A DNA stretch of 64,000 nt from an uncultured Candidatus Saccharibacteria bacterium (GTDB lineage Bacteria > Patescibacteriota > Minisyncoccia > Sungbacterales > JACQCQ01), in NCBI GenBank assembly GCA_964494945.1, contig CAZBTX010000002.1, forward strand, positions 38,696 to 102,695, written 5' to 3'. Below the pieces are notes generated by a model that saw only the letters and a program-made list of their open reading frames with translations, did no database searches and was not told the DNA's origin. Made by a program: the position numbers and the translations under genes. Of this stretch, positions 9,917 through 63,970 are shown piece by piece. Within the stretch, counting starts at the first letter, position 1. The number at the start of each line of letters is the position of its first letter.

Positions 9917-9956
9917 GTACTCACAGGACAATTCTATAGAATTGTCCTGTGAGTAC
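9917..9956. repeat. 40-bp perfect palindrome (18-bp arms around TATA)
   Basis: gtactcacaggacaattc-tata-gaattgtcctgtgagtac, followed by a second short palindrome ggagtcggactcc. Confidence 0.8.
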
Positions 9957-13713: not shown

Positions 13714-13745
13714 ACTGTATCAGTAGGACGTCCTACTGATACAGT
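13714..13745. promoter_or_regulatory. 32-bp perfect palindrome with TAGGACGTCCTA core upstream of PAP2 gene
   Basis: actgtatcagtaggac/gtcctactgatacagt. Lies between the yerC-like stop and the PAP2 start. Confidence 0.5.
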
Positions 13746-13804: not shown

Positions 13805-14185
13805 CTAGCTTCTTATCTGTGCCGACGCGCCCAGAATCCGTTCTACTGCTTTGATCACTTGTTGGCCCTGTGACTCTTTAAAGAACTGACTAAACACCTT
13901 CCGATAACCTTCGCCTGACTTAAAAAGTTCCCGTTGAATAATGTGCACGGTAGTTTTGCTTATTTTCAGAACACGGCATATCGCGCCGTAACTATAACCA
14001 TGTTGCAGCAACACTGCTACCATCAGCCGTTTGGCCAGCATAATTTTTTCGGTATGGGTAAGAAGATTATCGAGGAAGCGGCGCAGTGGCTTCTCGTCGT
14101 TAATCTTCGCAAGAGTCCTCACAAGAGCGTCGGCGATCTGATGCTCCATCTCGCGTGAAAGCTGATTTTGAGATACTTTAGGCAT
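13805..14185 (-). CDS. TrpR-like DNA-binding protein YerC/YecD family
   Basis: C-terminal HTH GYSYGAICRVLKISKTTVHIIQR is typical of the YerC family. Confidence 0.6.
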   Translation of the reverse strand: MPKVSQNQLSREMEHQIADALVRTLAKINDEKPLRRFLDNLLTHTEKIMLAKRLMVAVLLQHGYSYGAICRVLKISKTTVHIIQRELFKSGEGYRKVFSQFFKESQGQQVIKAVERILGASAQIRS

Positions 14186-16380: not shown

Positions 16381-18999
16381 TTAAACCACAAAGTTAATCA
16401 ACCGATCACGAACGAAAACGACTTTTTGCGGCTCACTCGTCAAGAACTTGGCGGCTGCGGCATCTGCACGCACCGCGCTTTCGGCGTCTTTTTGTGAGAC
16501 ACCTCTTGGCAAATTTATCCTGCCACGCACCTTGCCATTTACCTGCACTATCAACTGAAACGTATCTTCATGAATAAGTTTTTCGTCATACGAAGGCCAA
16601 GAGGATTTATGAATTGAGCCCTTGTCTCTTTGCTGTCCCGATTCGCTTCGCGAATCGCGGATCCTCGATTTTTTGTCTGCGAAAAATCGGGACCATAACT
16701 CTTCCGCGATATGCGGCGCGAAAGGCGCTAATAATTGCAAAAATATTTTGACGTCTTCGCCCGAAACAGCCCCCGGAAACTCCTCAAACTCGTTCAAAAG
16801 TATCATGAGTGCCGAAATCGCTGTATTGTAGCGCAGCCCTACAATGTCTTCAGTTATTTTCTTAATTGTTCGATGAACTATTCTTTCCAACTTTTGATTT
16901 TTGAGTTGTAATTTTGATTTTTGACTTTTGATTTTTGATTTTTCAGAGTAGAACCTCCAAACCCGATTTAAGAATCTGGTCATCCCGGCAATCCCCGAAT
17001 CGCGAAAATCCCCGCCTTCCTGAAATGGTCCGGTAAACATCAAATAAAGTCGCAAGGCGTCAGCGCCGTAGGCCTTGATGTAATCGTCCGGATTTACAAT
17101 ATTCCCCTTGGATTTGGACATTTTGGCGCCGTCTTTGATTATGAGTCCGTGTGCACGAAATATCGTGAACGGCTCCTCAAAATCCAAAAGCTCCCAATCC
17201 TTGAATACCATCGTAAGAAACCGCGAGTACAAAAGATGCAGAACCGAGTGCTCCGCCCCGCCGATGTACATCTGGACAGGCAACCATCGCCGTGTAATTT
17301 CCTGATTCCACGGAATTTCTAATTCCGAATTTCTAATTCCTAAATTTGAACTTTTTGCATTCTCATTTTGAATTTTGATCTTTGAATTTTGCATTTTTAC
17401 GCTGGGATACCGAAGAAAGTACCAGGCCGAATCCAGAAAAGTATCGGAAACATCGGTTTCGCGACGCGCCTTAGCGCCGCACTTGGGACATTTTGTTTCG
17501 TAAAACGACTTAACTGACGCCAATGGCGACTGACCCGTCCCCGTGGGCCGAAAATTCTTGATAAACGGCAATTTTACCGGCAAATCTTTTTCCGGCACCG
17601 CCATCCAGCCCGGATTTTCCAGTTCGCCCTTATTAAATCCTTCCTTAATTTTGATTTTTGATTTTTGATTTTTGATTTTCCCCGCGCAGTTTTCACAGAA
17701 AACAAGCGGGATGGGCGGCCCCCAATAGCGCTGGCGCGAAATCAGCCAATCACGGATGCGATATGTGGTAACTTTTCTACCCTTTCCCTTTTCGCTAAGC
17801 CACTTCGTGATGGCAACCCTGGCCCCAGATGAAGTCATGCCACTGAACTGACCTGAGTCGTACAAAACTCCATCTTCTATAAAAACCCCTTCAATTTTTT
17901 CTTCATCGGCCGGTTTTATAGTTGGCTTCAGCGGTATATGGTATCTTTTCGCAAAAGCCACGTCGCGTTCATCGTGTGCGTCTCCAAATAGAGCACCGGT
18001 GCCAAAATTTATAAGCGCGTAGTCCGCAATCCAAATCGGTAACTCTTGGTTATTTAAGGGATTAACTGCTTTCGCTCCCCTTACTTCGATTCCTGTTTTT
18101 TCTCTTCCTTCAGCAGCCCGTTCAAGTTCAGACTTTTTAATTGCATTTTGAACGTAGTTTTCTATTTCTTTGCTATTTGATACTTGATTTTTTAATTCCC
18201 AGATTATCGGATGCTCCGGAGCCAACACTAAAAATGTAGCCCCCCAAAGCGTGTCTACTCTGGTGGTAAACACCTTGATACTTAAATTTTTGTTTTTAAT
18301 CTCAAAACTGATCTCCGTGCCCTCGGATTTTCCGATCCAATTCCTTTGAGCGATTTTTATTTTTTCCGACCAGTCAATTTTTTCAAGATTATTCAAGAGC
18401 CGCTCGGCATAATCCGTGGTCTTAAAAAACCATTGCTCCAGGTCTTTTTTTATGACCGCCGTGCCGCATCTTTCGCAATTCCCGTTTATGACCTGCTCAT
18501 CCGCCAGCACCGTTTTGCACGAAGGGCACCAATTAACTTTTGCCTTTTTGCGGTATGCCAAGCCGTGCTTAAACATCTGGACGAAAATCCACTGGGTCCA
18601 CTTGTAGTATTCTGGATCGTAGGTTTCTAGTCGCTCATTCCAGCTAAATCCGTTGCCGATGCTCGAAAGCTGCCGGTAAAAATTCTTTTCCGAAACCTTG
18701 GCCTGTTTGGCGGGGTGCTTGCCGATCTTCAGGGCGTAATTTTCCGAATGAATCCCGAAGCCGTCAAGTCCAATGGGCTCAAAAACGTCATGTCCTTGCA
18801 TGCGCTTAAAGCGCCCGTAAATGTCGGAGCCGGTAAAAGCGAAGACATTGCCCACATGAAGCCCCTCCGCCGAAGGATACGGGAACATCATTAAGTTGTA
18901 GTAGGGTCTCTTGGCTCCCTTAAAATTCGGCTCGTAGGTTTTATCCCTAAGCCATTTAGCTTGCCATTTCTTCTCAATTTTCGCCGGGTTGTAGCGCAT
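16381..18999 (-). CDS. leuS: leucyl-tRNA synthetase with three K/Q/S-rich low-complexity insertions
   Basis: HVGN (HIGH) and KMSKSKGN motifs plus a CP1 editing region. Insertions KIKNQKSKIKIKEG, KMQNSKIKIQNENAKSS and EKSKIKSQKSKLQLKNQK are encoded by (tgatttt)n repeats. Confidence 0.85.
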   Translation of the reverse strand: MRYNPAKIEKKWQAKWLRDKTYEPNFKGAKRPYYNLMMFPYPSAEGLHVGNVFAFTGSDIYGRFKRMQGHDVFEPIGLDGFGIHSENYALKIGKHPAKQAKVSEKNFYRQLSSIGNGFSWNERLETYDPEYYKWTQWIFVQMFKHGLAYRKKAKVNWCPSCKTVLADEQVINGNCERCGTAVIKKDLEQWFFKTTDYAERLLNNLEKIDWSEKIKIAQRNWIGKSEGTEISFEIKNKNLSIKVFTTRVDTLWGATFLVLAPEHPIIWELKNQVSNSKEIENYVQNAIKKSELERAAEGREKTGIEVRGAKAVNPLNNQELPIWIADYALINFGTGALFGDAHDERDVAFAKRYHIPLKPTIKPADEEKIEGVFIEDGVLYDSGQFSGMTSSGARVAITKWLSEKGKGRKVTTYRIRDWLISRQRYWGPPIPLVFCENCAGKIKNQKSKIKIKEGFNKGELENPGWMAVPEKDLPVKLPFIKNFRPTGTGQSPLASVKSFYETKCPKCGAKARRETDVSDTFLDSAWYFLRYPSVKMQNSKIKIQNENAKSSNLGIRNSELEIPWNQEITRRWLPVQMYIGGAEHSVLHLLYSRFLTMVFKDWELLDFEEPFTIFRAHGLIIKDGAKMSKSKGNIVNPDDYIKAYGADALRLYLMFTGPFQEGGDFRDSGIAGMTRFLNRVWRFYSEKSKIKSQKSKLQLKNQKLERIVHRTIKKITEDIVGLRYNTAISALMILLNEFEEFPGAVSGEDVKIFLQLLAPFAPHIAEELWSRFFADKKSRIRDSRSESGQQRDKGSIHKSSWPSYDEKLIHEDTFQLIVQVNGKVRGRINLPRGVSQKDAESAVRADAAAAKFLTSEPQKVVFVRDRLINFVV

Positions 19000-28573: not shown

Positions 28574-28686
28574 AGCTACGAACGCAAAAAGTAAAAATTA
28601 AATATCAAAATTATGGTATCGCTTCGCGATTAATTTTTGAATTTTGACTTGTCATTTTGACTTTTGATTTTTGAATTTTGATTTCA

Positions 28687-37595: not shown

Positions 37596-37940
37596 ATGAC
37601 TCGAGTCAAAGGCGGCGTACACGCCCTGAAAAAAAGAAGGAAGACCCTAAAATATGCCAAGGGGTATCTTTGGGGCAGAAAATCCAAAGAGCGCCAAGCG
37701 CGGGAAGCACTTCTGCACGCCTGGGTTTACGCTTTCCAGCACCGCAAAAAGAAAAAAGGCGAATTTAGAGCGCTCTGGAACACCAAAATATCCGGGGCCT
37801 TAAGCGGACAGGGTTTCTCCTACAGCAAGTTCATAAACGCCTTAAATCAGAAGAAAATCGGCTTGAACAGAAAAATGCTGGCAACCATCGCCGAACAACA
37901 TCCGAAAGTGTTTGAAAAAATTGTGGCGGAAGTCAAATAA
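37596..37940 (+). CDS. rplT: 50S ribosomal protein L20
   Basis: The conserved L20 sequence is recognisable throughout. Confidence 0.85.
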   Translation: MTRVKGGVHALKKRRKTLKYAKGYLWGRKSKERQAREALLHAWVYAFQHRKKKKGEFRALWNTKISGALSGQGFSYSKFINALNQKKIGLNRKMLATIAEQHPKVFEKIVAEVK

Positions 37941-37947
37941 AAAAGTT

Positions 37948-37979
37948 GAGCCGCCCCTCGCGGGGCGGCTCATCGTTTC
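37948..37979 (+). terminator. terminator after rplT
   Basis: 10-bp stem gagccgcccc/ggggcggctc. Confidence 0.5.
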
Positions 37980-38457
37980 AGCTGATGCACCGCGCATCCC
38001 ACCAGCCGCGCGGGATGAGGTTGCTACGAAAGAGTGCCACAAGTTCCTTATAGTTCCGTGGATCTTGCAACCACATCCCAGCAAACCGTTCCGCGGACTG
38101 TTCATGCTCGAAGTCATAGAGCCAGAGAAATCTCATAGAAATTTCCGGCCCGCGAGGCAGAACGCCGAGATGATGGAACACTTCAAGGGCAATATGGCCC
38201 ATCTCATGCGCTACGTCTGTAAGACGTTCGCGAAGAGATCCTGCCGGTGTGATCTGGATCCGGTACCACCATGGATCATTTGCCACGGACCATCCACTTG
38301 TGGGAAAATAGTGAGCTCTCCCCCAGTTCCACGCCCCATGTCGCCCTACTTCAATTTCCCGGACACGTAACACCTCGAACTGATGACGCAGCCGCAGACC
38401 GCGTAACTGATCCAAACACTGAAAGAGCAGCTGATTCCAGTTGACGCCGGTCATCAT
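37978..38457 (-). CDS. putative HExxH zinc metallopeptidase (GC-rich)
   Basis: VAHEMGHIAL motif. Confidence 0.3.
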   Translation of the reverse strand: MMTGVNWNQLLFQCLDQLRGLRLRHQFEVLRVREIEVGRHGAWNWGRAHYFPTSGWSVANDPWWYRIQITPAGSLRERLTDVAHEMGHIALEVFHHLGVLPRGPEISMRFLWLYDFEHEQSAERFAGMWLQDPRNYKELVALFRSNLIPRGWWDARCIS

Positions 38458-38579
38458 CTCCTCCTGGAAACTTTAGATGCCCAAGTCTACCAAAAATTGG
38501 GAATGGTTGCCATTAAGCTGGCTTGCGAAGAAACCACTAAGTGGTTTTTTTGGTTTTACTTGATTGAAAGGAGAGTGCT

Positions 38580-38801
38580 ATGAAGAAATCAGAGAGTTTT
38601 TCATACCACCTCACGATTAGAATTAACTGGCGCGAGTTGAGACCAGAAAATCTTGCTGGCCATCTCGGCCAAGCAATGAGAGTGCATGCAGGAGATGATT
38701 GCCTCGGCTCAATCTCAATCATTGAGGTCCAGGAGCATTGGATTCGGACCAAAGTTGCAACTACTCTGATTCGTTTAATCCGCTGGATCTTCCAAGTCTA
38801 G
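38580..38801 (+). CDS. small hypothetical protein
   Basis: AAGGAG Shine-Dalgarno 5 nt upstream of the ATG. Confidence 0.35.
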   Translation: MKKSESFSYHLTIRINWRELRPENLAGHLGQAMRVHAGDDCLGSISIIEVQEHWIRTKVATTLIRLIRWIFQV

Positions 38802-38818
38802 CCCGCCTTCTGCGGGCT

Positions 38819-39601
38819 TCATATTTTTCTACCCAAAACCAGCGTCAGCAAAAATATCCCCGCGCTGGCAATGATCACCGCCGGCCCTGCGGCAACACCC
38901 CAAAGATAAACGGCTCCAACGCCAAGCATTACCGAAACGGCCGCGAAGGCCATGCTGATAATACCAAAACTATAAAGATTTTTCGCTACGTTCTTGGCCG
39001 CAGCCGCCGGTATTATGGTTAAAGTTCCCATAAGTAGCGTCCCCACGAACTTGATGCCGAGCGCCACCACTAAGGCCAGCATGAGAAGAAATACGAAATT
39101 GGCCAACTGAACGCGCAACTTGGAAGCATGCCATAAATCTGGAGCGGCGATGGAAAACATGATGCGTCGCGAGATTAAAACAGTTATGACAACTACTGCC
39201 AATGATGAAGCTATTGTAATCCAGGCCTCCAGCGGGGTAATTTTTGTTAGGTCGCCGAATAACGCTTCCAGAAGTTCCGGCTCGGGAGTTAAGAGAATCC
39301 CGGCAGCTAATGCTGCCGAAAATAAAACTCCCACAATGGCATCAATCGGTAAATTGGTTCTCTTCTCAAGTCCTGATATCAAAACTGCCGCTAAAAGCAA
39401 AAAAGCAAATGCTCCGATAAAAGGATTTAGATTAAATATGAGCGCTAGGGCAATTCCCGGCAGAGCCACGTGAGACAAGGCATCGGACACCAGGGACATC
39501 CGTTTCATTATCATAAAAACGCCTAAAAAACCGGCGGCGACCGCTGTCCCGAGCCCGGCCATTAAGCTGTAAAAAAGATTTGAATCAAGAAATTGGCTCA
39601 T
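38819..39601 (-). CDS. znuB: metal (Zn/Mn) ABC transporter permease
   Basis: Topology and motifs of the ABC-3 family. Confidence 0.65.
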   Translation of the reverse strand: MSQFLDSNLFYSLMAGLGTAVAAGFLGVFMIMKRMSLVSDALSHVALPGIALALIFNLNPFIGAFAFLLLAAVLISGLEKRTNLPIDAIVGVLFSAALAAGILLTPEPELLEALFGDLTKITPLEAWITIASSLAVVVITVLISRRIMFSIAAPDLWHASKLRVQLANFVFLLMLALVVALGIKFVGTLLMGTLTIIPAAAAKNVAKNLYSFGIISMAFAAVSVMLGVGAVYLWGVAAGPAVIIASAGIFLLTLVLGRKI

Positions 39602-40332
39602 GCTACGTGTTCTCCTTCTTTAGTATGCAAGTGATGATAAAACGTGGTCTCGCCGTAAAGTTTTTCCAACTGCTGGGGTGTTAAAACCTCATGCGGCTCG
39701 CCGGAGCAAACCAGCGATTTATTAAGGCAGAGGACCGAAGTGGCGTATCTGAATACCACGTTCAATTCGTGTGATACGAGAATAATAGTGATGCCGAATT
39801 TGTCCTGTAATTCGTGAAGTAAATTGTAAACCGTCTCTTCGCCGGAAATATCCACGCCCGCCGTTGGTTCATCAAAAAGAAGCACACTGGGCTTGTCAAA
39901 AAGCGCCCAAGCGATCAAAGCCCGCTGGACTTGTCCCCCGGAAAGAGTTGAGAGACGTTCGTTCATGACCGAGGCCGGCAATTCCACGGTCTCCAGCGCC
40001 TCACGGATTCGTTTATCATGATTTACCCAGGAAAGCAGGAAATTCTTCTCATGCAGCAGAAAAAACTCACGCACCGTAATGGGAATATTCTTGTCAATTT
40101 GAAAACGCTGCGGGACGTATCCGATACGTACATCCGGACGCCACCGAATCACGCCTTGATACGGCAATGTCCCTAAAAGCGTCCTGAAAAGAACGGTTTT
40201 TCCCGCTCCATTCGGCCCGATAATGGCCGTAACATCGCCCTCATTCACCGTAAAAGAGAGACCGGAAAGTATCTCCTCTTTTTCAATCGTGACCGACAAA
40301 TTTTCTACTTCAAGAATAGGATTTTTATCCAT
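39598..40332 (-). CDS. znuC: metal ABC transporter ATP-binding protein
   Basis: Walker A GPNGAGKT, signature LSGGQ, Walker B. Confidence 0.7.
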   Translation of the reverse strand: MDKNPILEVENLSVTIEKEEILSGLSFTVNEGDVTAIIGPNGAGKTVLFRTLLGTLPYQGVIRWRPDVRIGYVPQRFQIDKNIPITVREFFLLHEKNFLLSWVNHDKRIREALETVELPASVMNERLSTLSGGQVQRALIAWALFDKPSVLLFDEPTAGVDISGEETVYNLLHELQDKFGITIILVSHELNVVFRYATSVLCLNKSLVCSGEPHEVLTPQQLEKLYGETTFYHHLHTKEGEHVA

Positions 40333-40383
40333 GGTTAGAAATCTAACACGAAAATTTTAACTAGACAAAGCCCCTGACAAATT

Positions 40384-40465
40384 TATTCTATGTACTCTAT
40401 TTTGGTACTCTATTCCAACTGTTAATACCCTATGCTATGCTATAGCATGACATAGAGTACATAGA
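40384..40465. repeat. composite palindrome: 16-bp TIRs around ATGCTATAGCAT core
   Basis: attctatgtactctat ... atagagtacatagaat with a central tatgctatagcatg. Confidence 0.6.
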
Positions 40466-40470
40466 ATAAA

Positions 40471-41076
40471 ATGGGTATAGACAAGCATGGCAGGGTTAGC
40501 TATATCATGATGACGCGGAAGGGAGAAATTGCGAGATTAATATTGGGGATTCTCGCGGGGGCTGGAGTAGTTTTAGTCGCGGCCACGCTCCCCGGACTCG
40601 CGGTAGCGCTGAAGCCGTTCGCGCGAAAGAAAAACAAGCATCTTGAAAAACAAAGTCTTGAGCGAGCCCTCCGGCGCCTTTGCCAAAGACGACTGGTTGA
40701 ATTAGTGCCTGACCGCAATGGCAACTTTTCGCTGTTAGTCACCAAACTTGGTAAAAAACATCTCAAGAAACTGGACTTCGAGAGTTTAAAGCTTAAAATC
40801 CCAGAATATTGGGACGGAAAGTGGAGTGTGATACTTTTTGATATACCGGAATCGCGCAAAGCGGCTCGTAATGCGCTCCAACGAAAATTAAAAGAGATGG
40901 GCTGTTTCCAACTCAACAAAAGTGTGCTTGTACACCCCAGTGACTGTGAGGATGAGATAGATTTCACCAGTGAAATACTTGGGATCAGAAACTATGTAAT
41001 AACTTTTCAAACAACGTCTTTGGGACACCAAGAACATCGGGCCTTACACCACTTTAAGTTAAAACCGAGATCATAA
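40471..41076 (+). CDS. membrane-anchored winged-helix protein with Cas2/VapD-like C-terminal domain (tentative)
   Basis: N-terminal TM helix, a wHTH-like LERALRRLCQRRLVELV, then WSVILFDIPESRKAARNALQRKLKEMGCFQLNKSVLV, which resembles the Cas2 beta-alpha-beta core. Confidence 0.4.
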   Translation: MGIDKHGRVSYIMMTRKGEIARLILGILAGAGVVLVAATLPGLAVALKPFARKKNKHLEKQSLERALRRLCQRRLVELVPDRNGNFSLLVTKLGKKHLKKLDFESLKLKIPEYWDGKWSVILFDIPESRKAARNALQRKLKEMGCFQLNKSVLVHPSDCEDEIDFTSEILGIRNYVITFQTTSLGHQEHRALHHFKLKPRS

Positions 41077-41136
41077 CAAAGACTTTAACTACAAATCGAC
41101 AACATCAAAAAACACACCGCATACGTTCTACACACT

Positions 41137-41174
41137 CCTACCCTATACCATGCTATAGCATGGTATAGGGTAGG
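41137..41174. repeat. 38-bp perfect palindrome with ATGCTATAGCAT core
   Basis: cctaccctataccatgctatagcatggtatagggtagg. Confidence 0.8.
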
Positions 41175-41200
41175 AATTGGTCTTATTCACTTTATGTGAA

Positions 41201-42925
41201 TTACTTCAGCATCTGTAGCATCTTTTCTATGGGTAGCGTATTTATTATGTCTTTTGCCTCGCACCAGCCGCGACGAGCTTGGGCAATACCGAACTCCAAA
41301 AAGGCGAAGTGCGAGATAGCGTGCGCGTCTGAATCAATGGAAAACTTTATCCCAGCTTCGCGAGCTATGCGAATATGCTCGTCTTTCAAATCCAGCCGAT
41401 GGGGCTCGCCGTCAATTTCCAAAATGGTCTTGGTGCGCTTGACGGCCCTTAATATCTCGTCAAAATCCAGTTCTATCGGTTCACGCTTCTGTATCAGGCG
41501 GTCGGACAAATGGAAAATAATGTCCACGTTAGGATTTTCCATGGCGCGGATCACGCGCTTGGTCTGGTCGGCCCTAGATAATTTTAAATTTGTATGCACC
41601 GCCGCGCCAACGCAATCCAGCATCGCCAGAGTTTTATCGTTTATGTCCAATTTCCCGTCGGCGAGAATATTAACTTCCGCGCCTTTTAGAACTCTAAATT
41701 TAATCCCGCGCTTTTTTAACTCCAAATTAACTTTATCAATTTCAGCCATTTGGCGCACCAGCTTTTTCTCATCCGCGCCGCCTGTCATGGCGAGCGTCCG
41801 AGTATGGTCAGTAATCACAATATATTCCAATCCATATTTATATGCGGCCAGCGCCATCTCCATAATGGAATTATTTCCATCGGTCCAGTCGGTTTGCGTC
41901 TGCAAATCGCCCTTTAAATCCTTATACCCGATAATTCTCGGCAAATTATTTTTGGCGGCCAGTTCAATTTCGCCTTTATTTTCGCGCATTTCCGACTCTA
42001 CGTATTGAAGCCCGAGTGTTTTATAAACTTCTTCTTCGGTTCTACCAGCGATACGCTTTGCCCCCTTGAAAAGGCCGTATTCGTTCAGCTTGTATCCTTT
42101 TTTAATGGCGCGTTCTCTCAATGCCACATTATGTTCTTTAGAGCCGGTAAAATAATTTAGCGCGGCACCGAACGATTCTTCGGGAATCACGCGGATATCC
42201 ACATCCAAGCCGTTTTTCATCCTGACCATGGACTTGGTTTCGCCATGAGCGTAAACGTGCGCGACGTCCTTCATGCGCACGAAATTATTCATAACAGGCC
42301 GCGGTTTTTTAGAAACCGCGATAATATCAATATCCCCCACCGTTTCTTTCCAGCGCCGGAACGAACCGGCAATGACAAGTTCATCTACCCCTTTCCAGCT
42401 TTTTAGTTCTGATTCCAATTCTTTAACATATGGGCGAATATCGCCCAAAACAAATCTCCCGCCGTGCGATTTTACAAATTCAATGCCTTTTAAAATTTTA
42501 TCTTCCGATTTTTTGCCAAATCTCGGAAGTGTAGCGATTTTTCCGGCCTTGGCGGCTTTCTCCAGATCGGCAACGGTTTTAATTCCCAATTTCTGCCATA
42601 AGACCTTAATTCCTTTCGGCCCCACGCCTTCAATTTTGGTAAGCCCCGCGATATCCACCGGCAGTTTCTTTTTTAATTGCTCATATTCCTTGATGTGGCC
42701 GGTACTCACATATTCCTCAATTTTTTCCGCGAGCCCTTGCCCCACGCCGGGAATATTTTTCAAAGCCGGAATGCCGCCTTCTTTATAAACGCTCTTTACG
42801 TCCTCGGAGAATGACCCGACCGATTCGGAAGCGCGCTCATACGCTTGCGGCTTAAACGGCACGTCGTCCACGGCCATTAATTCCGCCATCTCCAGAAAAA
42901 TTTTGGCGAGTTCCTTATTTATCAT
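41201..42925 (-). CDS. polX: DNA polymerase X family protein with C-terminal PHP domain
   Basis: HhH motifs, a pol-beta-like NT domain (GSFRRWKETVGDIDI), and a PHP phosphoesterase region (ITDHT). The start is at MINKELAKIF. Confidence 0.7.
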   Translation of the reverse strand: MINKELAKIFLEMAELMAVDDVPFKPQAYERASESVGSFSEDVKSVYKEGGIPALKNIPGVGQGLAEKIEEYVSTGHIKEYEQLKKKLPVDIAGLTKIEGVGPKGIKVLWQKLGIKTVADLEKAAKAGKIATLPRFGKKSEDKILKGIEFVKSHGGRFVLGDIRPYVKELESELKSWKGVDELVIAGSFRRWKETVGDIDIIAVSKKPRPVMNNFVRMKDVAHVYAHGETKSMVRMKNGLDVDIRVIPEESFGAALNYFTGSKEHNVALRERAIKKGYKLNEYGLFKGAKRIAGRTEEEVYKTLGLQYVESEMRENKGEIELAAKNNLPRIIGYKDLKGDLQTQTDWTDGNNSIMEMALAAYKYGLEYIVITDHTRTLAMTGGADEKKLVRQMAEIDKVNLELKKRGIKFRVLKGAEVNILADGKLDINDKTLAMLDCVGAAVHTNLKLSRADQTKRVIRAMENPNVDIIFHLSDRLIQKREPIELDFDEILRAVKRTKTILEIDGEPHRLDLKDEHIRIAREAGIKFSIDSDAHAISHFAFLEFGIAQARRGWCEAKDIINTLPIEKMLQMLK

Positions 42926-43538
42926 CGGTCTTAATATCAGCTGAAATCTTTTCTGCGAATACCGAGTGGTAAAGGAGCACGAGTACGACCGTCCCCACCA
43001 GTGCCGTAAACCCCGCCACAAGAAAAAGCGTCCTAAAACCGTAGGCTTCAGTAATAAGCCCCGAGAGAGCCCCCACCGTGCCCACCGCCAGCGCCACGGT
43101 TACGTTCTCCACTCCCCATTCCAGCCCCTCCCTTTTTTTGTCTATGCCGCGGGTAAAAAGCGAGTACCAAGCGGGTAAATCAACGGCGCGTCCCAGACCC
43201 GCTAGGGCCTGGATAGCGTATATGTGCCAGGGATACTCGGCCACGGTAAACAGGAATAGGGCCGCTGTCGTAATGAAGGCACCAACGATGAGAAAAATAA
43301 AGTCGTCGCGATCGCCGTCGTGCCTGTCTATGAACCAGCCGATGGGAATTTGCAAGATCCACATGACCATGTAAATAGCCGTGGCGAATCCGGCCGTTTT
43401 CACGCTCCCGCCTTCTATGCCGGTGGCAATGAAAATCGGCAGAATCGGCCCCAAAAAACCTATGCCCGCCAGCATGAAGAAATCGGAAAGCACCAGCATC
43501 CGTATAATCGGGTTTATTCTTAGTGAGACAAGCAACAT
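42915..43538 (-). CDS. half-size MFS-like transporter fragment (6 TM)
   Basis: 207 aa resembling the C-terminal half of an MFS transporter. Overlaps its neighbours by a few nt. Confidence 0.35.
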   Translation of the reverse strand: MLLVSLRINPIIRMLVLSDFFMLAGIGFLGPILPIFIATGIEGGSVKTAGFATAIYMVMWILQIPIGWFIDRHDGDRDDFIFLIVGAFITTAALFLFTVAEYPWHIYAIQALAGLGRAVDLPAWYSLFTRGIDKKREGLEWGVENVTVALAVGTVGALSGLITEAYGFRTLFLVAGFTALVGTVVLVLLYHSVFAEKISADIKTDDK

Positions 43539-52711: not shown

Positions 52712-53203
52712 ATGCCGGCAGCCAGATTACCGAGGGGTCCCAAAAGGCCTGTAGCAAAACCTACGCCAACGCCACGTCAGGATACCCTACGCATTCACAG
52801 TAGCATCATCGCGCGTCGCTTCGTACTCGCCAATATCCGAGGCGAGCAGGTCTTGGTACCCAGAAAAAGGGCGGAGCGGGAAGGACTTTCTTTTGTTCCT
52901 TTCCCGCAATCGTCACCGCCCAAACCATTGAGACTGCCGAGGTTGCCTAAGCGCCTCAAGGCGCCCGGGCCGCGAAATATTCCCAACCCGCCACCTTCTC
53001 GAATTCCACTAGCGGGTTTTGGGCTGATTGAGGTCCGCGGCAGAACCCGGATAACTAAGCTTCGCGCTAGAATATCCCAAACGGAGCCGGCGCCTTTGCC
53101 CACCTCGCGCGTCGTCTCGCCGCACCTTGCTCTCATCACGAGGGGGGGGACATACCCGCATCGTAAAATGCCGCCAGACGTAAAGAGAGCGGCCGTCAGC
53201 TGA
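52712..53203 (+). CDS. Pro/Arg-rich basic hypothetical protein (GC-rich island)
   Basis: AAAGGAG Shine-Dalgarno. Ends inside a palindromic terminator. Low-complexity sequence. Confidence 0.3.
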   Translation: MPAARLPRGPKRPVAKPTPTPRQDTLRIHSSIIARRFVLANIRGEQVLVPRKRAEREGLSFVPFPQSSPPKPLRLPRLPKRLKAPGPRNIPNPPPSRIPLAGFGLIEVRGRTRITKLRARISQTEPAPLPTSRVVSPHLALITRGGTYPHRKMPPDVKRAAVS

Positions 53204-53220
53204 CGGCCGCTCTTCTCTAA
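53186..53220. terminator. bidirectional palindromic terminator
   Basis: agagcggccgtcag/ctgacggccgctct, a perfect 28-bp palindrome between convergent genes. Confidence 0.5.
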
Positions 53221-54048: not shown

Positions 54049-54297
54049 TCAATGCCCCAAAATTTCCACTAGCTTAACGCGGCCGGTAGTGCCGCATAAA
54101 ATTCTCACATTTGATTTCGCCGCGCCGAAATATTTGGCCATAAGCGCAATAACTTCTTGGTTAGCCCGATTTTCTACGGGAGCGGCCAGAACCCGCACGC
54201 GATAACTATCTCCAATTTTTTCAACGCTGGGGCGCTTAGCCCTTGTGATCACACGGACACTAATTTTCATATTTTCATATTTCCACGCGCTTACCAT
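54049..54297 (-). CDS. DUF167 (YggU) family protein
   Basis: ISVRV...APVENRANQEVIALMAKYF...VRILCG. Confidence 0.6.
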   Translation of the reverse strand: MVSAWKYENMKISVRVITRAKRPSVEKIGDSYRVRVLAAPVENRANQEVIALMAKYFGAAKSNVRILCGTTGRVKLVEILGH

Positions 54298-54714
54298 ATA
54301 TGTTTACGATAGGAAACATATATGGTAAAAGCGAATGAATCTGCAAGTGCACGAAATTGATCCATAAAAAGAATGGGCGGCGCGCCTTGCGGCGGCCGCC
54401 CCTGTGTGCGTCGGCGGGAGGTGATCAACCTCGCCAAAGATCTTGGAAAGTACCTCCTAACCGGGAGGGGGTTGGCCTCCCTTACGATTGCGCAGGCGCG
54501 CGATCACCTCCTTGGGAGACGTCTCTGCCACTTGGACTGCTTTTGTTTCCTGCTTCCCTTGGTTGTCGTGACCATTTGCGGTTCTCCGACGACACGGAAG
54601 TTCGCACGATAGCCCAAGATGTCAGCGAGACCCCCTTTCAGGTCGAGCAACGCGACCGAATACTTCCATTCTAGACCCTTATTTCTTTTTCGCATCTTTC
54701 TTTTTCAACAGCCA

Positions 54715-56225: not shown

Positions 56226-56267
56226 CCGGCCGCTCTCCTCGGGGAGAGCGGCCGGACTCACTTTTTA
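56226..56267. terminator. bidirectional rho-independent terminator
   Basis: 13-bp stem ccggccgctctcc/ggagagcggccgg with a T-run. Confidence 0.6.
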
Positions 56268-57649
56268 ATATCTTTTTTCTTTTTCAACACCGCTTGGTTT
56301 TCTTGGTCGGCCCTAGGTTGGTAATATTTCCTCCCGCGCAATTTCTCCGGCAAATGTTCCTGCGAAACTTTAGCATCCAAAAAATCATGGGCATATTTAT
56401 ATCCTTTGTGATATCCCAGATCTTTCATGAGCTTAGTTACCGCATTCCTTAAATGTAGCGGGACGGGCAAAGCGCCGTGTTCTTTTGCGTCAGACAACGC
56501 GGCCAAAAGTCCAGTATACGAAGCGTTGGACTTCGGCGCCAAAGCCAGATAGGTCGCGCCGTGCGCTAAGTTGATCATGGCTTCCGGCATCCCCACATGC
56601 TCCACGGCTTCTGCTACAGCAATAGCTACCACTAATGCCGTTGGCAGGGCGTTTGAAATATCTTCCGAGGCAAAAATTATCATGCGGCGCGCAATGAATC
56701 TCGGGTTTTCTCCCGCCTCCACCATGCGCGCGAGCCAATACAAAGCCCCGTCCGGATCCGAATCGCGCATGGATTTGATGAAGGCCGAGATGACGTTATA
56801 ATGCTCCTCGCCTTTTTTGTCGTATCTTATGGCTTTTTTCTGGAGGGCATCCTCCACCATCTTTTTTGTAATCTTTATACTCTTAGCGGCATCTTTGCTC
56901 ACCGTCTTATTCTCTAATTCGCGCGAATTAGAGAATGCGGTATTCGGGGTGGAGAGAACAATAAATTCCAGCGCATTCAGCGCCACTCTAGCATCTCCGT
57001 CGGCAAATCCAATCACAGCGTGCTTGGCGTCCTCGTCCAACTTGGCCTTGCGCGTTCCTAATCCACGCGCCAAGTCGGAAAGTGCTCTATCAATAATATT
57101 TTCAAGCGCATCATCAGTAAGCGGTTCTAAAACCAAAACCATGGAACGGGAAAGTAGAGGCGAGTTAAGTTCAAAAGAAGGATTTTCGGTGGTGGCACCG
57201 ATTAAAATAATCGTGCCGTTTTCCACGTAAGGCAAAAAGGTGTCCTGCTGGGCTTTGTTGAAGCGGTGGATCTCGTCAACGAATAAAATGGTTTTGCGTT
57301 TTTCAAACTTCAGTCGCCTTTTGGCGTCTTCAATCAGTTTGCGCAGCTCCGGGACGCCGGAAGTGGCCGCCGAAAACGGCTGAAAAAATCCTTTGGTCTT
57401 TTCCGCGATGATGCGCGCCAGCGTAGTTTTGCCGGTTCCCGGCGGACCCCACAAAATCACCGACCGCAACTCGTCTTTTTCAATGGCTGTTCGCAAGGGC
57501 TTCCCCTTCCCCACAATCTCATCCTGCCCGTGAAAATCGCCGAAATCCCGCGGCCGCATGCGCTCGGCCAACGGCTCCATGCCTTTTATATTTTCTTCAA
57601 ATAAGTCAGTCACAGTGAAACTATTATACTCCCGCCGTCCCGAAGGCAT
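56258..57649 (-). CDS. rarA: replication-associated recombination protein A (AAA+ ATPase) carrying in-frame palindromic insertion
   Basis: GPPGTGKTT Walker A and MgsA_C region. An FSNSRELEN insert is encoded by the 28-bp palindrome. Confidence 0.75.
   Translation of the reverse strand: MPSGRREYNSFTVTDLFEENIKGMEPLAERMRPRDFGDFHGQDEIVGKGKPLRTAIEKDELRSVILWGPPGTGKTTLARIIAEKTKGFFQPFSAATSGVPELRKLIEDAKRRLKFEKRKTILFVDEIHRFNKAQQDTFLPYVENGTIILIGATTENPSFELNSPLLSRSMVLVLEPLTDDALENIIDRALSDLARGLGTRKAKLDEDAKHAVIGFADGDARVALNALEFIVLSTPNTAFSNSRELENKTVSKDAAKSIKITKKMVEDALQKKAIRYDKKGEEHYNVISAFIKSMRDSDPDGALYWLARMVEAGENPRFIARRMIIFASEDISNALPTALVVAIAVAEAVEHVGMPEAMINLAHGATYLALAPKSNASYTGLLAALSDAKEHGALPVPLHLRNAVTKLMKDLGYHKGYKYAHDFLDAKVSQEHLPEKLRGRKYYQPRADQENQAVLKKKKDIKK
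56909..56936. repeat. 28-bp perfect palindromic element inside rarA
   Basis: attctctaattcgcgcgaattagagaat. Confidence 0.85.
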
Positions 57650-57726
57650 ATCAGGTAGTAGAAATTCGAACAAGCAACCACTTGTTCGCCGTAAGCTAAC
57701 ACTCGGATTTTCACTACCCGGCATAT
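57647..57726. mobile_element. MITE-like element abutting rarA start codon
   Basis: TIRs catatcaggtagtagaaattcgaac and ctcggattttcactacccggcatat around an inner gaacaag/cttgttc hairpin. Confidence 0.55.
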
Positions 57727-58409: not shown

Positions 58410-58580
58410 GAGTATGCGGGTGAGGCGAGCGGTCCACCGTCTCGATAAGCTCGGGGCAAGCAAACGCTCGCAACAGCCGGGGATACCCCTCGGCTGTTTC
58501 TTTTTATATTTTCTTTCTATATTTCCATCAGCGCCAGTTGCCGCGGCACCCGCACATAAGTATTTCAAGTATTTCGGTAT

Positions 58581-58626
58581 GCTCCCTACTCTATCTTATG
58601 CTATAGCATAAGATAGAGTAGGGAGC
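58581..58626. repeat. 46-bp perfect palindrome with ATGCTATAGCAT core
   Basis: gctccctactctatcttatgctatagcataagatagagtagggagc, between convergent genes. Confidence 0.8.
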
Positions 58627-58727
58627 TAAGTACGCAACGAAACAGAAACATGTAAACGAGTATAGAAATATAGAAACGAGCCGGGAGAGTAAGAGAAATG
58701 AAAAACTGCCCCAAATGGGGCGGTTTT

Positions 58728-59265: not shown

Positions 59266-59303
59266 GCGTACCCCCTCCCACTACGATACTCTAGAGTATC
59301 GTA
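59266..59303. repeat. 38-bp perfect palindrome (TCTAGA core)
   Basis: cctcccactacgatactctagagtatcgtagtgggagg. Confidence 0.8.
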
Positions 59304-59314
59304 GTGGGAGGAAT

Positions 59315-60250
59315 TTACGAACGCGAAAGGGCTTTACGTTTTTCTATGGCGGCCAGCAGTGCCTCGCGAATGCCGTCAGTTGAATATCCATAGGTCGGAT
59401 AGCCGCCGATCTGTGCCGAACCCTCCGCTGGTTTTTTAGGATCTATATAAGTATCGTGAAAATCAGTACCGGCGGTTTTTAGTATCTTATATTTCTCCGA
59501 TAGTGTTATCAAGAATTCCGTGCCATCCTCATCAGCATTTGAAAAAACTTCAATGCCATCTAGTCCTTGCTCCAAAAACTTGCCAAGAGTTTCTTCAACT
59601 AATTTATATAATTGATTTTTATCTTTTATAACCATGCCCATGGGTATAAGCGGATGCGACCAAATCGCGACACCCCCCGCTTCGTGTATTACTTCGGCCG
59701 CTTCTTCGGGTGTTAGCGAACTATGAGATACAAAAACACTCTTCGGGGCCTCATCCGCTAAATAAGCGTTGAAAAGATCCTGCCGAGTTACGATGTTTTC
59801 TGTTCGCAGTTTCTCTACATTCGCGGGATTTTCCATGATTTCCTCCGCGACATGTACACGGCTTATGACTCCCTTAGCTCTTTTATTCACCGCCTCAAAT
59901 TCCACCGCGAAACCATAACGCTTCAGATTTTCTATGCCGTTTTGGGCGCGCGTTTCCCGCGCACGCTTAAAATCTCCTAGTATTTGTAAAAGGCGCTGAT
60001 GGCTACAATCAATCCCAAACCCCAGAATATGAATTCCCCATTTTTCATACTCACACGAAAGTTCAATCCCCGGTATCACCTCCATACCAAGTTCCTTCCC
60101 GGCCTCCAATGCTTCATTAATGCCGCCAACCGTGTCGTGGTCGGTGATGGCTATGCTTAAAACGTCGTTCTCTTTCGCCATTTTCACGCATTCCCGCGGA
60201 GAAAACTTGCCATCGGAAGCGGTAGTTTGAATTTGATAATCAATTACCAT
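59315..60250 (-). CDS. PHP-domain phosphoesterase
   Basis: N-terminal ITDHDTVGG motif. Confidence 0.6.
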   Translation of the reverse strand: MVIDYQIQTTASDGKFSPRECVKMAKENDVLSIAITDHDTVGGINEALEAGKELGMEVIPGIELSCEYEKWGIHILGFGIDCSHQRLLQILGDFKRARETRAQNGIENLKRYGFAVEFEAVNKRAKGVISRVHVAEEIMENPANVEKLRTENIVTRQDLFNAYLADEAPKSVFVSHSSLTPEEAAEVIHEAGGVAIWSHPLIPMGMVIKDKNQLYKLVEETLGKFLEQGLDGIEVFSNADEDGTEFLITLSEKYKILKTAGTDFHDTYIDPKKPAEGSAQIGGYPTYGYSTDGIREALLAAIEKRKALSRS

Positions 60251-63047: not shown

Positions 63048-63932
63048 CTATACCACCTTGCGGGCGAGTTGGTAGAGCGCGTACCAAATCGGCCGGAAAA
63101 CCACATCAAAAGCAAGAGGATGAGTCTTAGACGTTCCGCCGAATCCTTTTTTGAAACGGGAGATGCCGGGCCACTTAATTTCATCAATACCCCACAAGTC
63201 ATAGGTGGCGCATCCGCGCCTTCTGGCTTCCTGTATAATCCGCCAGTGCAGGAGATACGGCGCCATCACGTTTCGCAATTCGTAATTTGAAGCGCCGTGA
63301 AGGTAAGTAGCCGTTCCTTTGTAAAAATTCACCAGAGCCGCCGCCGCGACTTCTTTTTTGTAAACTGCAAAAAACAATCTATTCTCTAATTCGCGCGAAT
63401 TAGAGAATAATAAATGCTCGTAGTGCGATTTGGGATGCAAATGAAAGCCATCACGCTTGGCGGTTGCGGAAAGCAGCTTGTAAAACTCTTCAACCGCCTC
63501 CGTGCCGCGCTCTTCTACCGCCACCCCGTGCCGCTCGGCGACTCGTATGTTGTATCGCGTTTTTTCGTGCATACCGCGAAGCAGTTCATCATCGGATTTT
63601 GTCAGATCAATCAAAACCGTCTCCCGCGGCTGTAGATTCAGCGCCGGAGATACTTTCAAATTACTTGTCGCTTGTCGCTTGTCGCCTGTCGCCAATTCAT
63701 TTTCTGGCTCAACGCGAATAAAGATTGGACTATCGGGGAGCGCCCTTAATGCTTTGAAAAATCCCTCGACATTTTTAATTTCCGGCCGTGGGCAGTACCA
63801 ATAAAAAAATCCGAATGGCAAATTGTGTTTGAAGAAAACCGCCGATTCACTACCAAAGACGAGACGATGGGTCTCCCGCCCATCCAGTTTCTGAATTTCT
63901 TCCCATTCTTTGTACTGCAAAAATGATGGCAT
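63048..63932 (-). CDS. FemAB-family peptidoglycan bridge-formation protein carrying in-frame palindromic insertion
   Basis: YLHGASNYELRNVMAPYLLHW is FemAB-like. An FSNSRELEN insert is encoded by the 28-bp palindrome. Confidence 0.5.
   Translation of the reverse strand: MPSFLQYKEWEEIQKLDGRETHRLVFGSESAVFFKHNLPFGFFYWYCPRPEIKNVEGFFKALRALPDSPIFIRVEPENELATGDKRQATSNLKVSPALNLQPRETVLIDLTKSDDELLRGMHEKTRYNIRVAERHGVAVEERGTEAVEEFYKLLSATAKRDGFHLHPKSHYEHLLFSNSRELENRLFFAVYKKEVAAAALVNFYKGTATYLHGASNYELRNVMAPYLLHWRIIQEARRRGCATYDLWGIDEIKWPGISRFKKGFGGTSKTHPLAFDVVFRPIWYALYQLARKVV
63381..63408. repeat. 28-bp palindromic element inside FemAB-like gene
   Basis: attctctaattcgcgcgaattagagaat, identical to the rarA copy. 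Confidence 0.85.
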
Positions 63933-63942
63933 CCCTACCTAT

Positions 63943-63970
63943 CTTCTCTAATTCGCGCGAATTAGAGAAG
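63943..63970. repeat. intergenic copy of the palindromic element upstream of FemAB-like start
   Basis: cttctctaattcgcgcgaattagagaag. The 26-bp core is identical. Confidence 0.85.

Follow-up and report, generated by a model that had tools for sequence, protein, structure and literature searches.

What kind of gene lies between palindromes built on one and the same core, and is such an arrangement a property of the gene or an accident of the place where it was found? The question is raised by a stretch of 64,000 nucleotides of contig CAZBTX010000002.1 (the whole of it is called the window below), which belongs to an uncultivated, ultra-small member of the Patescibacteria (Candidate Phyla Radiation), a group of mostly uncultivated bacteria. 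The gene is annotated as hypothetical in its source metagenome-assembled genome (MAG; Candidatus Sungbacteria) and encodes a short protein of the PaaX type, with a winged helix and a Cas2-like central domain and without an effector domain, referred to here as mini-PaaX. Loop-free perfect palindromes accompany genes of this family in unrelated neighbourhoods, and this recurring layout of a gene between palindromes of its own suggests, as far as sequence comparison can tell, that the protein recognises the DNA surrounding the gene that encodes it.

The protein and the palindromes around its gene

The longest open reading frame (ORF) of the locus has 201 codons; in the alignment its M14 coincides with the first residue of the two nearest homologues (187 aa, 82-84% identity), and the real start is therefore probably the ATG at 40507/40510, which gives a protein of ~188 aa. 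Residues 112-191 match the Pfam family PF20803 PaaX_M ('PaaX protein central Cas2-like domain') with an E-value of 9.6e-21 and 74.1 bits against a cut-off of 24, and the only other Pfam/NCBIfam matches are weak winged-helix/Cas2 ones. In the 189-aa form the N-terminal winged helix covers residues ~7-92 and PaaX_M ~100-185, and the protein ends ~10 residues past the central domain. The effector domain PaaX_C had no Pfam match, and mini-PaaX, which extends hardly beyond the central domain, corresponds to PaaX lacking the ligand-sensing part. The PaaX N-terminal model gave no Pfam match at E<=1, only MarR_2 being found, with E 0.03. One homologue carries the UniRef name 'Transcriptional repressor PaaX-like central Cas2-like domain-containing protein'.

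A first AlphaFold model, built on 17 sequences, was confident for the C-terminal domain only. A second one, built on 122 sequences (pLDDT 87, pTM 0.70), shows a canonical winged helix in the N-terminal half (helix 7-18, a loop, helices 28-34 and 36-42, a recognition helix at 48-60, a beta wing at 64-78 and a linker helix) followed by a beta-alpha-beta-beta-alpha-beta domain. In Foldseek searches of the PDB the top ranks were taken by E. coli PaaX (8a39, 183 columns) and the PaaX-like Rv0674 (3kfw, 174 columns); the N-terminal half also matched PadR and MarR repressors, and the C-terminal half the Cas2 structures 3exc, 5zyf, 2ivy and 6jhz, with probabilities of 0.97-1.0 and target-normalised TM scores of 0.47-0.64. 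Sequence profiles searched against the PDB reached PaaX only at E 0.28, so the link to PaaX rests on Pfam and on the comparison of folds. In a preliminary description of the locus a winged-helix-like segment and a C-terminal ferredoxin-like fold resembling Cas2 had been recognised, and both are borne out by the model and by PaaX_M; a comparison with Cas2 structures, which that description had proposed, found the fold, the best match over the whole protein being E. coli PaaX. In the Cas2-like domain the Asp that ends strand 1 and a Ser are invariant and a Cys is nearly so.

The gene and the repeated elements that share its core are located as follows (the slash stands at the centre of symmetry).

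40507 to 41076, forward strand: mini-PaaX gene, ~188-189 aa (longest ORF from 40471, 201 aa), assigned by Pfam, homologue alignment, AlphaFold and Foldseek
40426 to 40459: upstream imperfect 34-bp palindrome, TACCCTAT-GCT-ATGCTA/TAGCAT-GAC-ATAGAGTA, a putative operator
40382 to 40400: left arm (19 nt) of an outer inverted repeat, TTTATTCTATGTACTCTAT, made of half-site TACTCTAT and a -10-like ATTCTA, facing the ABC-3 operon
40405 to 40413: the outer half-site GTACTCTAT repeated in direct orientation, the other such copy lying at 40392-40400 (spacing 13)
40452 to 40470: right arm of the outer inverted repeat, ATAGAGTACATAGAATAAA, made of the right half-site of the putative operator and a conserved, -10-like TAGAAT on the mini-PaaX side
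41136 to 41175: downstream perfect 40-bp palindrome, TCC-TACCCTAT-ACC-ATGCTA/TAGCAT-GGT-ATAGGGTA-GGA
58581 to 58626: solo perfect 46-bp palindrome 17 kb from the gene, GCTCCC-TACTCTAT-CTT-ATGCTA/TAGCAT-AAG-ATAGAGTA-GGGAGC

The 12-mer core ATGCTATAGCAT occurs exactly three times in the window (at 40437, 41150 and 58598), compared with 0.06 occurrences expected, and none of 100 shuffled sequences reached three. The pattern common to the three sites is TACYCTAT-N3-ATGCTA/TAGCAT-N3-ATAGRGTA, and its outer 8-mer is found 11 times in the window against 1.5 expected, 8 of the 11 being inside the three sites. The upstream element is a composite: the arms of the outer repeat, 100% complementary and 51 nt apart, enclose the 34-bp palindrome, which has the core at its middle and mismatches in 3 of its 17 pairs, and two additional direct copies of GTACTCTAT are present. 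The centre of this palindrome lies ~65 nt 5' of the mini-PaaX start codon, and its right arm adjoins the conserved TAGAAT; the block ATAGAGTAYATRRAATAAA of the right arm region is kept in two related loci, L087 and L088. The downstream palindrome begins 60 nt after the mini-PaaX stop codon. Folding energies of the sites as single-stranded DNA range from -19 to -23 kcal/mol and their z-scores from -7 to -10 (-19.6 kcal/mol and z -7.2 for the downstream hairpin, -23.4 kcal/mol for the solo one). The GC content of the gene is ordinary. The palindromes with a shared core, the composite upstream element and the third copy that the preliminary description had reported are thus real, with coordinates accurate to within two bases; the downstream palindrome is perfect as stated there, its length being 40 bp and not 38 bp.

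Association of the gene with palindromes in other genomes

A scan for relatives, restricted to one genome per species, yielded 427 relatives, from which 79 loci with 82 family genes were kept. Almost all are MAGs labelled Patescibacteria, often with several paralogues per genome, and these paralogues are only ~30-55% identical to one another. The family as a whole, clustered at 50% identity, comprises 5,899 clusters with E-values below 1e-3 and 870 with E<1e-30. A length of ~185 aa is common to nearly all of its proteins (~166-277 aa in the best 150 representatives, mostly 180-195), and throughout the 870 clusters the Cas2-like domain is always fused to the winged helix.

The association of the family with palindromes is evident at several levels. 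In two homologue loci (proteins 53% and 50% identical) the neighbourhoods are wholly different, and in both the gene has perfect palindromes centred on ACGCTATAGCGT on its two sides, which are the only long palindromes in these 12.5-kb loci. Over the 79 loci, perfect palindromes with no loop and arms of at least 10 nt number 47 in the 48 kb of gene flanks (within 300 bp of a family gene) compared with 34 in the remaining 1,136 kb, a 32.7-fold enrichment, while ordinary stem-loops with loops of 1-4 nt are enriched only 3.3-fold at the same flanks. When a few mismatches are allowed, at least one flanking palindrome is found in 58 of the 82 genes and one on both sides in 25. They are loop-free and 28-54 bp long; 71 of 93 have a centre of the form C[G/T]AT[C/A]G (CGATCG in 37, CTATAG in 20, CTATCG in 10, CGATAG in 4). 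Conversely, 73 of the 84 palindromes with such a centre flank a family gene and 11 are solo. The upstream copies mostly have their centres 30-85 nt 5' of the start codon, and the downstream ones start from -8 to ~+100 nt relative to the stop codon, mostly within 60 nt. The enrichment at the flanks, the number of genes concerned and the gene-specific arms described below speak strongly against the chance occurrence of palindromes that the preliminary description had allowed for.

Several short-read contigs end exactly in such palindromes (L002 at 2501-2526, L003 at 2343-2368, L087 and L088 both at 1-40). Perfect palindromes of this size therefore appear to break assemblies of these genomes, which would bias counts taken from fragmented data; their coincidence with contig ends is seen in several assemblies.

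The palindromes are specific to the gene that they flank. Arm identity (positions 4-17 from the dyad) is 85% when the upstream copy is compared with the downstream copy of the same gene and 35% between genes, paralogues carry different palindromes (four in genome JACQCQ01, five in CAYHJX01) and the type of centre tracks the protein tree. L087 and L088, whose proteins are 82-84% identical to mini-PaaX, retain both palindromes in position, with the same blocks at the same spacing and a different N3, and a 56% homologue (L008) keeps the outer block TACCCTAT. In the clade formed by L046, L050, L056 and L060 GAGM-N3-CGATCG-N3-KCTC is the constant part and the outer arms vary, even where both copies belong to a single gene; a position at which such copies disagree is consequently not read in a sequence-specific manner. 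Conservation of this kind, confined to blocks, resembles that of a binding site.

In 71 sites aligned by their centres, the covariation score was 1.07 against 0.21 for shuffled sequences and 0.12-0.21 for slid registers. In this alignment 93.7% of the cells pair, a value that is partly circular as the sites were selected as palindromic, and what is informative is how varied the pair types are and how the upstream copy differs from the downstream one. On the sense strand 18 mismatches are G-T and 13 A-C, without a preference for the former, and G-U cells are rare, which indicates a constraint on DNA or on both strands and not on one RNA. No Rfam family was found at the palindrome sites and, with no excess of G-U-compatible mismatches either, an RNA element was rejected as the primary level of selection. 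Inversion between the flanking palindromes was discarded as well: it would yield chimeric, imperfect palindromes, and each copy keeps its own perfect symmetry.

Palindromes of the window type also occur apart from the gene. A scan of metagenomes for CTAT-N3-ATGCTATAGCAT-N3-ATAG retrieved 35 loci, in which most sites are perfect or nearly perfect palindromes of 30-54 bp (typically 38-46) with a common inner part and differing N3 and outer arms. A family gene lies next to only five of these sites, spread over four loci, and in some cases the outer block is common to solo sites and to cassettes of the same sample (L106 compared with L105 and L097). Solo copies number 11 in 1.1 Mb of flanking sequence, or ~1 per 100 kb, and the window core has one solo copy in 64 kb.

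The genes around the family members are unrelated housekeeping genes. In a Pfam scan over the 79 loci the most recurrent family was found in at most 6 of 144 neighbours, and a tblastn search of the window neighbours against the same loci detected no synteny; a conserved operon partner or regulon was discarded on these grounds, the 144 neighbours belonging to scattered housekeeping families only. Among close relatives the context is steady, being identical in L004-L007, and L087 retains the gene of the family-X DNA polymerase (PolX) that follows mini-PaaX in the window. A phage or defence origin was considered and rejected too: PHROG profiles gave no match to the protein, the matches of PADLOC were below threshold (best E 0.02) and viral contigs (IMG/VR) contained one relative only.

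An autoregulated repressor and other readings

The reading favoured here, at about even probability, is that of an effector-less PaaX-type regulator which forms a self-contained repressor/operator module, with autorepression, additional sites and a process that keeps the sites symmetric as its components. The data establish the fold and the family of the protein, the link of the gene to its palindromes, the specificity of this link and the compensated changes; binding, repression, the part played by the downstream and solo sites and the origin of the symmetry are inferred from them. A dimer, joined through the Cas2-like domain as in PaaX, would bind the two-fold symmetric inner part of the palindromes (20-34 bp), which in the window would be the 34-bp pattern shared by the three sites. 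As the upstream site overlaps the putative promoter region, the protein would repress its own synthesis. The autoregulated DNA-binding protein with cognate operators that the preliminary description had listed among its options comes close to this reading and gains from the comparative data on the palindromes; the nuclease activity attached to it there does not, as no positive evidence of catalysis was obtained even though the Asp of strand 1 is invariant.

The genes next to mini-PaaX are the following.

39598 to 40332, reverse strand: ABC transporter ATPase gene, divergent from mini-PaaX
38819 to 39601, reverse strand: ABC-3 permease gene, in the same operon as the ATPase gene
41201 to 43021, reverse strand: PolX gene, convergent with mini-PaaX, the downstream palindrome lying 26 nt beyond its stop codon

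The motifs TAGAAT and ATTCTA in the right and left arms of the outer repeat are inferred to be promoter elements. With the right arm running into TAGAAT and its mirror image on the left pointing at the ABC-3 metal-transporter operon, the layout would correspond to the classical divergent arrangement of a regulator and its target, and this operon is probably also controlled by mini-PaaX in this genome. The downstream copy and the few solo sites could be further binding sites acting as a second operator, in looping, or as a roadblock or insulator at gene ends, and the evolution of a separate palindrome by each paralogue would let paralogues coexist without cross-talk.

PaaX itself, which acts as a repressor on its own promoter, has a dimerisation motif between a winged helix and a C-terminal effector domain, and the operator of the E. 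coli protein is a long inverted repeat, TGATTC-N27-GAATCA, of 39 bp overall (PMC9493321). The phenylacetyl-CoA-responsive proteins of E. coli and Pseudomonas and their relatives (8a39, Rv0674 3kfw, Jannaschia 3l09) share with mini-PaaX the Cas2-like central domain and, on the modelled fold, the winged helix that precedes it, and the span of the PaaX operator is similar to that of the mini-PaaX palindromes; the outer blocks in the window are 26 bp apart from centre to centre, comparable with the 33 bp of PaaX. In contrast, mini-PaaX has 189 aa instead of 316 and no C-terminal effector domain, fails the PaaX equivalog model TIGR02277 (26.8 bits against a cut-off of 264.55), has no paa genes nearby (its neighbours being the ABC-3 transporter and PolX), is restricted to Patescibacteria with several paralogues per genome, and has its gene framed by contiguous perfect palindromes. 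PadR and MarR repressors bind palindromes as dimers and are commonly autoregulated. The N-terminal domain of mini-PaaX resembles theirs, whereas its dimerisation would presumably take place through the Cas2-like domain and not through C-terminal helices, and its putative operators have two to three times the length of theirs and perfect symmetry.

Several observations weigh against a repressor of this kind. An ordinary operator needs no perfect symmetry over 40-54 bp, sites directly after a stop codon have no obvious role in repression, and 24 of the 82 family genes are without a flanking palindrome. Of 64 positions at which the upstream copy differs from the downstream one, 40 have changed in both arms, so that each copy still pairs; such changes at positions that are not read point to a hairpin-related constraint which, judging from the alignments, the simple repressor model leaves unexplained. 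Solo sites favour convergent gene ends and not promoters (~10 between convergent, 11 between tandem and 2 between divergent genes), and that of the window sits where two genes converge, between the canonical intrinsic terminators that belong to them. In L124 and L126 the left-hand gene has orthologues (73% identical) with no such palindrome behind them; the contexts there are rearranged and therefore do not offer a clean empty site. Finally, the N-terminal segment of the protein is hydrophobic enough for a membrane helix.

Compensated arms require either a function of the hairpin or cruciform or, in these reduced genomes, a mutation process that strongly favours symmetry, and either would be of interest with regard to genome stability and to how proteins with the Cas2 fold evolve. 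Within the repressor reading, perfect symmetry beyond the bases that are read would be maintained by hairpin-mediated template switching (quasi-palindrome correction) or by selection for the hairpin or cruciform. Template switching of this kind is documented in E. coli as a replication error that turns imperfect inverted repeats into perfect ones (PMC7202029).

In a wider class of readings, which we consider unlikely, the sites would not be ordinary operators. Modules based on hairpins would exist across Patescibacteria, and the protein would recognise the long perfect palindromes as folded DNA, perhaps processing or propagating them, marking its own gene on its two sides and seeding solo copies at gene ends. 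If true, this would amount to a partnership of protein and palindrome comparable to that of REP and RAYT or of CRISPR repeats, established on a Cas2 fold without Cas1; or else the protein could be a membrane tether by which the small chromosome is organised.

REP sequences are extragenic palindromes, often at the 3' ends of genes and with compensated changes in their arms, and the RAYT gene is flanked by the palindrome on which its product is thought to act. They were reportedly described, together with the RAYT transposase gene, by Nunvar in 2010 and by Bertels and Rainey in 2011. A selfish or semi-mobile element of this sort, whose protein nicks, copies or spreads folded hairpin or cruciform DNA, is rather unlikely in our judgement. 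The flanking palindromes would then mark the element, and the solo copies would be its dispersed progeny or scars left by deletion of the gene through recombination of the flanks. The likeness is considerable: a palindrome of its own brackets the gene in unrelated contexts, further extragenic copies have the same inner core with different self-complementary outer arms and prefer the 3' ends of genes as REPs do, the compensated changes imply a base-paired intermediate or constraint, the Cas2-like fold retains its invariant Asp and Ser and near-invariant Cys, and another palindrome of the window, TTCTCTAATTCGCGCGAATTAGAGAA, is found in frame inside two unrelated genes. Against this, near-identical cassettes were not found within a genome, where the paralogues are divergent and have palindromes of their own, close relatives keep the gene in its place, and solo copies are few in the 1.1 Mb of flanking sequence scanned, where tens to hundreds per genome would be expected. 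Profile searches of Pfam and NCBIfam detected no HUH or tyrosine motif and no recombinase domain, which sets mini-PaaX apart from RAYT, an HUH/Y1 (IS200/IS605-like) transposase; in the published description of PaaX the corresponding domain serves dimerisation, and neither a target-site duplication nor an empty site was found. The palindromes also differ from REPs in being perfect, loop-free and specific for each paralogue.

A tether between DNA and membrane, or a centromere-like organiser, in which a protein inserted next to its own gene by an N-terminal anchor clamps the flanking palindromes and a few others to the membrane and organises or segregates the small chromosome, seems improbable. 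It agrees with sites that are mostly in cis to the gene, with weak matches of the winged helix to the centromere-binding proteins AspA and TubR (E 0.02-0.03, not significant), and with the hydropathy of the supposed transmembrane segment, for which the Kyte-Doolittle mean is 2.35 (19 residues), values of 1.6 or more being reached by 63% of 239 family members. Hydropathy alone would allow the membrane anchor that the preliminary description had named. Nevertheless, in the model from the deep alignment the segment forms helix 7-18, a loop and helices 28-42, that is, a helix-loop-helix made of helices 1 and 2 of the winged helix (pLDDT 56-79); moreover, ~45% of the members have an uninterrupted apolar run of fewer than 18 residues, and an invariant Pro and a conserved Gly break the segment. 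On the modelled structure membrane anchoring is therefore not favoured.

The palindromes might also be purely structural hairpins, serving as bidirectional terminators or insulators that shield a dosage-sensitive regulator and not recognised by the protein, a possibility to which we attach little probability. A hairpin that has to form in both transcripts would call for perfect Watson-Crick symmetry with no wobble bias, as observed here, the downstream copies start ~0-60 nt from the stop codon, convergent gene ends are favoured by the solo copies, and the downstream palindrome of the window is the sole hairpin between two convergent genes and scored as terminator-like, though only weakly. Intrinsic terminators have a GC-rich stem, a loop of 3-8 nt and a U tract, and ordinary ones of the GC-rich kind are present in this genome, in contrast to the AT-rich, loop-free stems of the palindromes. 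An A or T tract is found in only 14 of 43 downstream copies (about a third), so the flanking palindromes are not standard terminators; the solo site of the window already lies between two such terminators; and the conserved centre and blocks, the near-identical copies of each gene and the 33-fold enrichment would remain unexplained.

A relic of Cas2, or a VapD-like toxin or nuclease, left behind by a lost CRISPR or toxin-antitoxin system is very improbable: it has in its favour the ferredoxin-like beta-alpha-beta-beta-alpha-beta fold with an Asp ending strand 1 and the annotation of one homologue as Cas2 in GenBank, and against it Cas2 models that stay below threshold (PF09827 with 12.4 against 23.8 bits, TIGR01573 with 12.4 against 24.5, the PADLOC Cas2 model with E 0.033), the absence of cas or antitoxin genes among the neighbours in all 79 loci, the lack of a CRISPR array in the window, and the fixed fusion to a winged helix in proteins of ~185 aa throughout 870 clusters, an architecture that fits PaaX. 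The toxin-like module and the Cas2 relic proposed in the preliminary description are thereby abandoned, the former having neither a partner gene nor a defence or PHROG match to support it. Its statement that the window contains no CRISPR array agrees with the tandem repeats of the 64 kb, none of which is one, and cas1 was absent from the immediate neighbours and from the 25 strongest Pfam families of the 73 window ORFs, to which that check was limited. The homologue annotated as 'CRISPR-associated endonuclease Cas2' is GenBank entry MDP3784723.1 (P0015), a member of the family; given the fixed winged-helix fusion and the missing cas context, this label, borne by at least one family member in that database, is probably wrong.

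The domain family as such is already known and is named in Pfam and UniRef. The literature searched contained no paper combining PaaX with Cas2 or Cas2-like proteins, no top-ranked paper on the Candidate Phyla Radiation mentioning PaaX, and no account of genes bracketed by perfect palindromes in these bacteria, which suggests that what is new is the layout, namely an effector-less PaaX-type regulator, widespread in Patescibacteria, that is bracketed by perfectly palindromic sites of its own. To our knowledge, no experimentally defined pair of transcription factor and binding site is known for Patescibacteria. Here a large family (870 clusters, several paralogues per genome) comes with a predicted DNA site for each member, and since that site can be read from the flanks of the gene, the prediction is testable by gel shift on synthetic DNA.

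Other palindromes and repeats of the window

Nine loop-free palindromes of the 64-kb window have arms of 14 nt or more, compared with none with arms above 11 nt in ten Markov shuffles. Two have the same kind of centre as the sites of the family and unrelated arms, 9917-9956 (CTATAG) and 54291-54328 (CGATAG), the latter spanning the start of a small ORF (54049-54297); they may be sites of paralogues encoded outside the window. Others have different centres: 13714-13745 (GACGTC), just downstream of a Trp-repressor-like gene (13805-14185), 59274-59311 (TCTAGA), 3 nt after the stop of the ORF 59315-60250, and 53186-53213 (CAGCTG).

A different perfect palindrome, TTCTCTAATTCGCGCGAATTAGAGAA, is present in three copies (56909-56936, 63380-63409 and 63943-63970). 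Two are inside ORFs, one MgsA/RarA-like (56258-57724) and one FemAB-like (63048-63932), where the only open frame reads FSNSRELEN, and the third lies 11 nt upstream of the FemAB start. In the FemAB homologue of L074 the TTCTCTAATTCGCGCGAATTAGAGAA segment aligns without gaps, so that it looks like an overwrite in place and not an insertion. HIP1 (GCGATCGC), the highly iterated palindrome of cyanobacteria, has 8 bp, thousands of copies and no dedicated gene that it flanks; the resemblance to it lies in the CGATCG centre of many family sites and in a palindrome placed within coding sequence with no change in length, as seen for TTCTCTAATTCGCGCGAATTAGAGAA.

On either side of the solo palindrome, at ~70-80 nt and between the terminators, an inverted repeat of 15 nt was detected (58514-58528 and 58662-58676, 93% complementary), which might be the remnant of a larger element.

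The segment between the genes of L20 and PolX differs between the window (37596-43021), where it contains an ORF with a HEMGH motif, the ABC-3 transporter and the mini-PaaX cassette, and L124 (5957-9825), a locus of a related Sungbacteria genome, where it contains ZIP and NUDIX genes. A comparison made at PolX in search of an empty site showed the entire segment to be replaced, NUDIX/ZIP standing where the window has mini-PaaX/ABC-3; on the gene content of the two loci, one metal-transporter segment is swapped for another.

Arrays of the heptamer TTTTGAT occur at 16892-16943 and 17649-17679, within a leucyl-tRNA synthetase-like ORF (16381-18999), and at 28635-28684, in an intergenic region.

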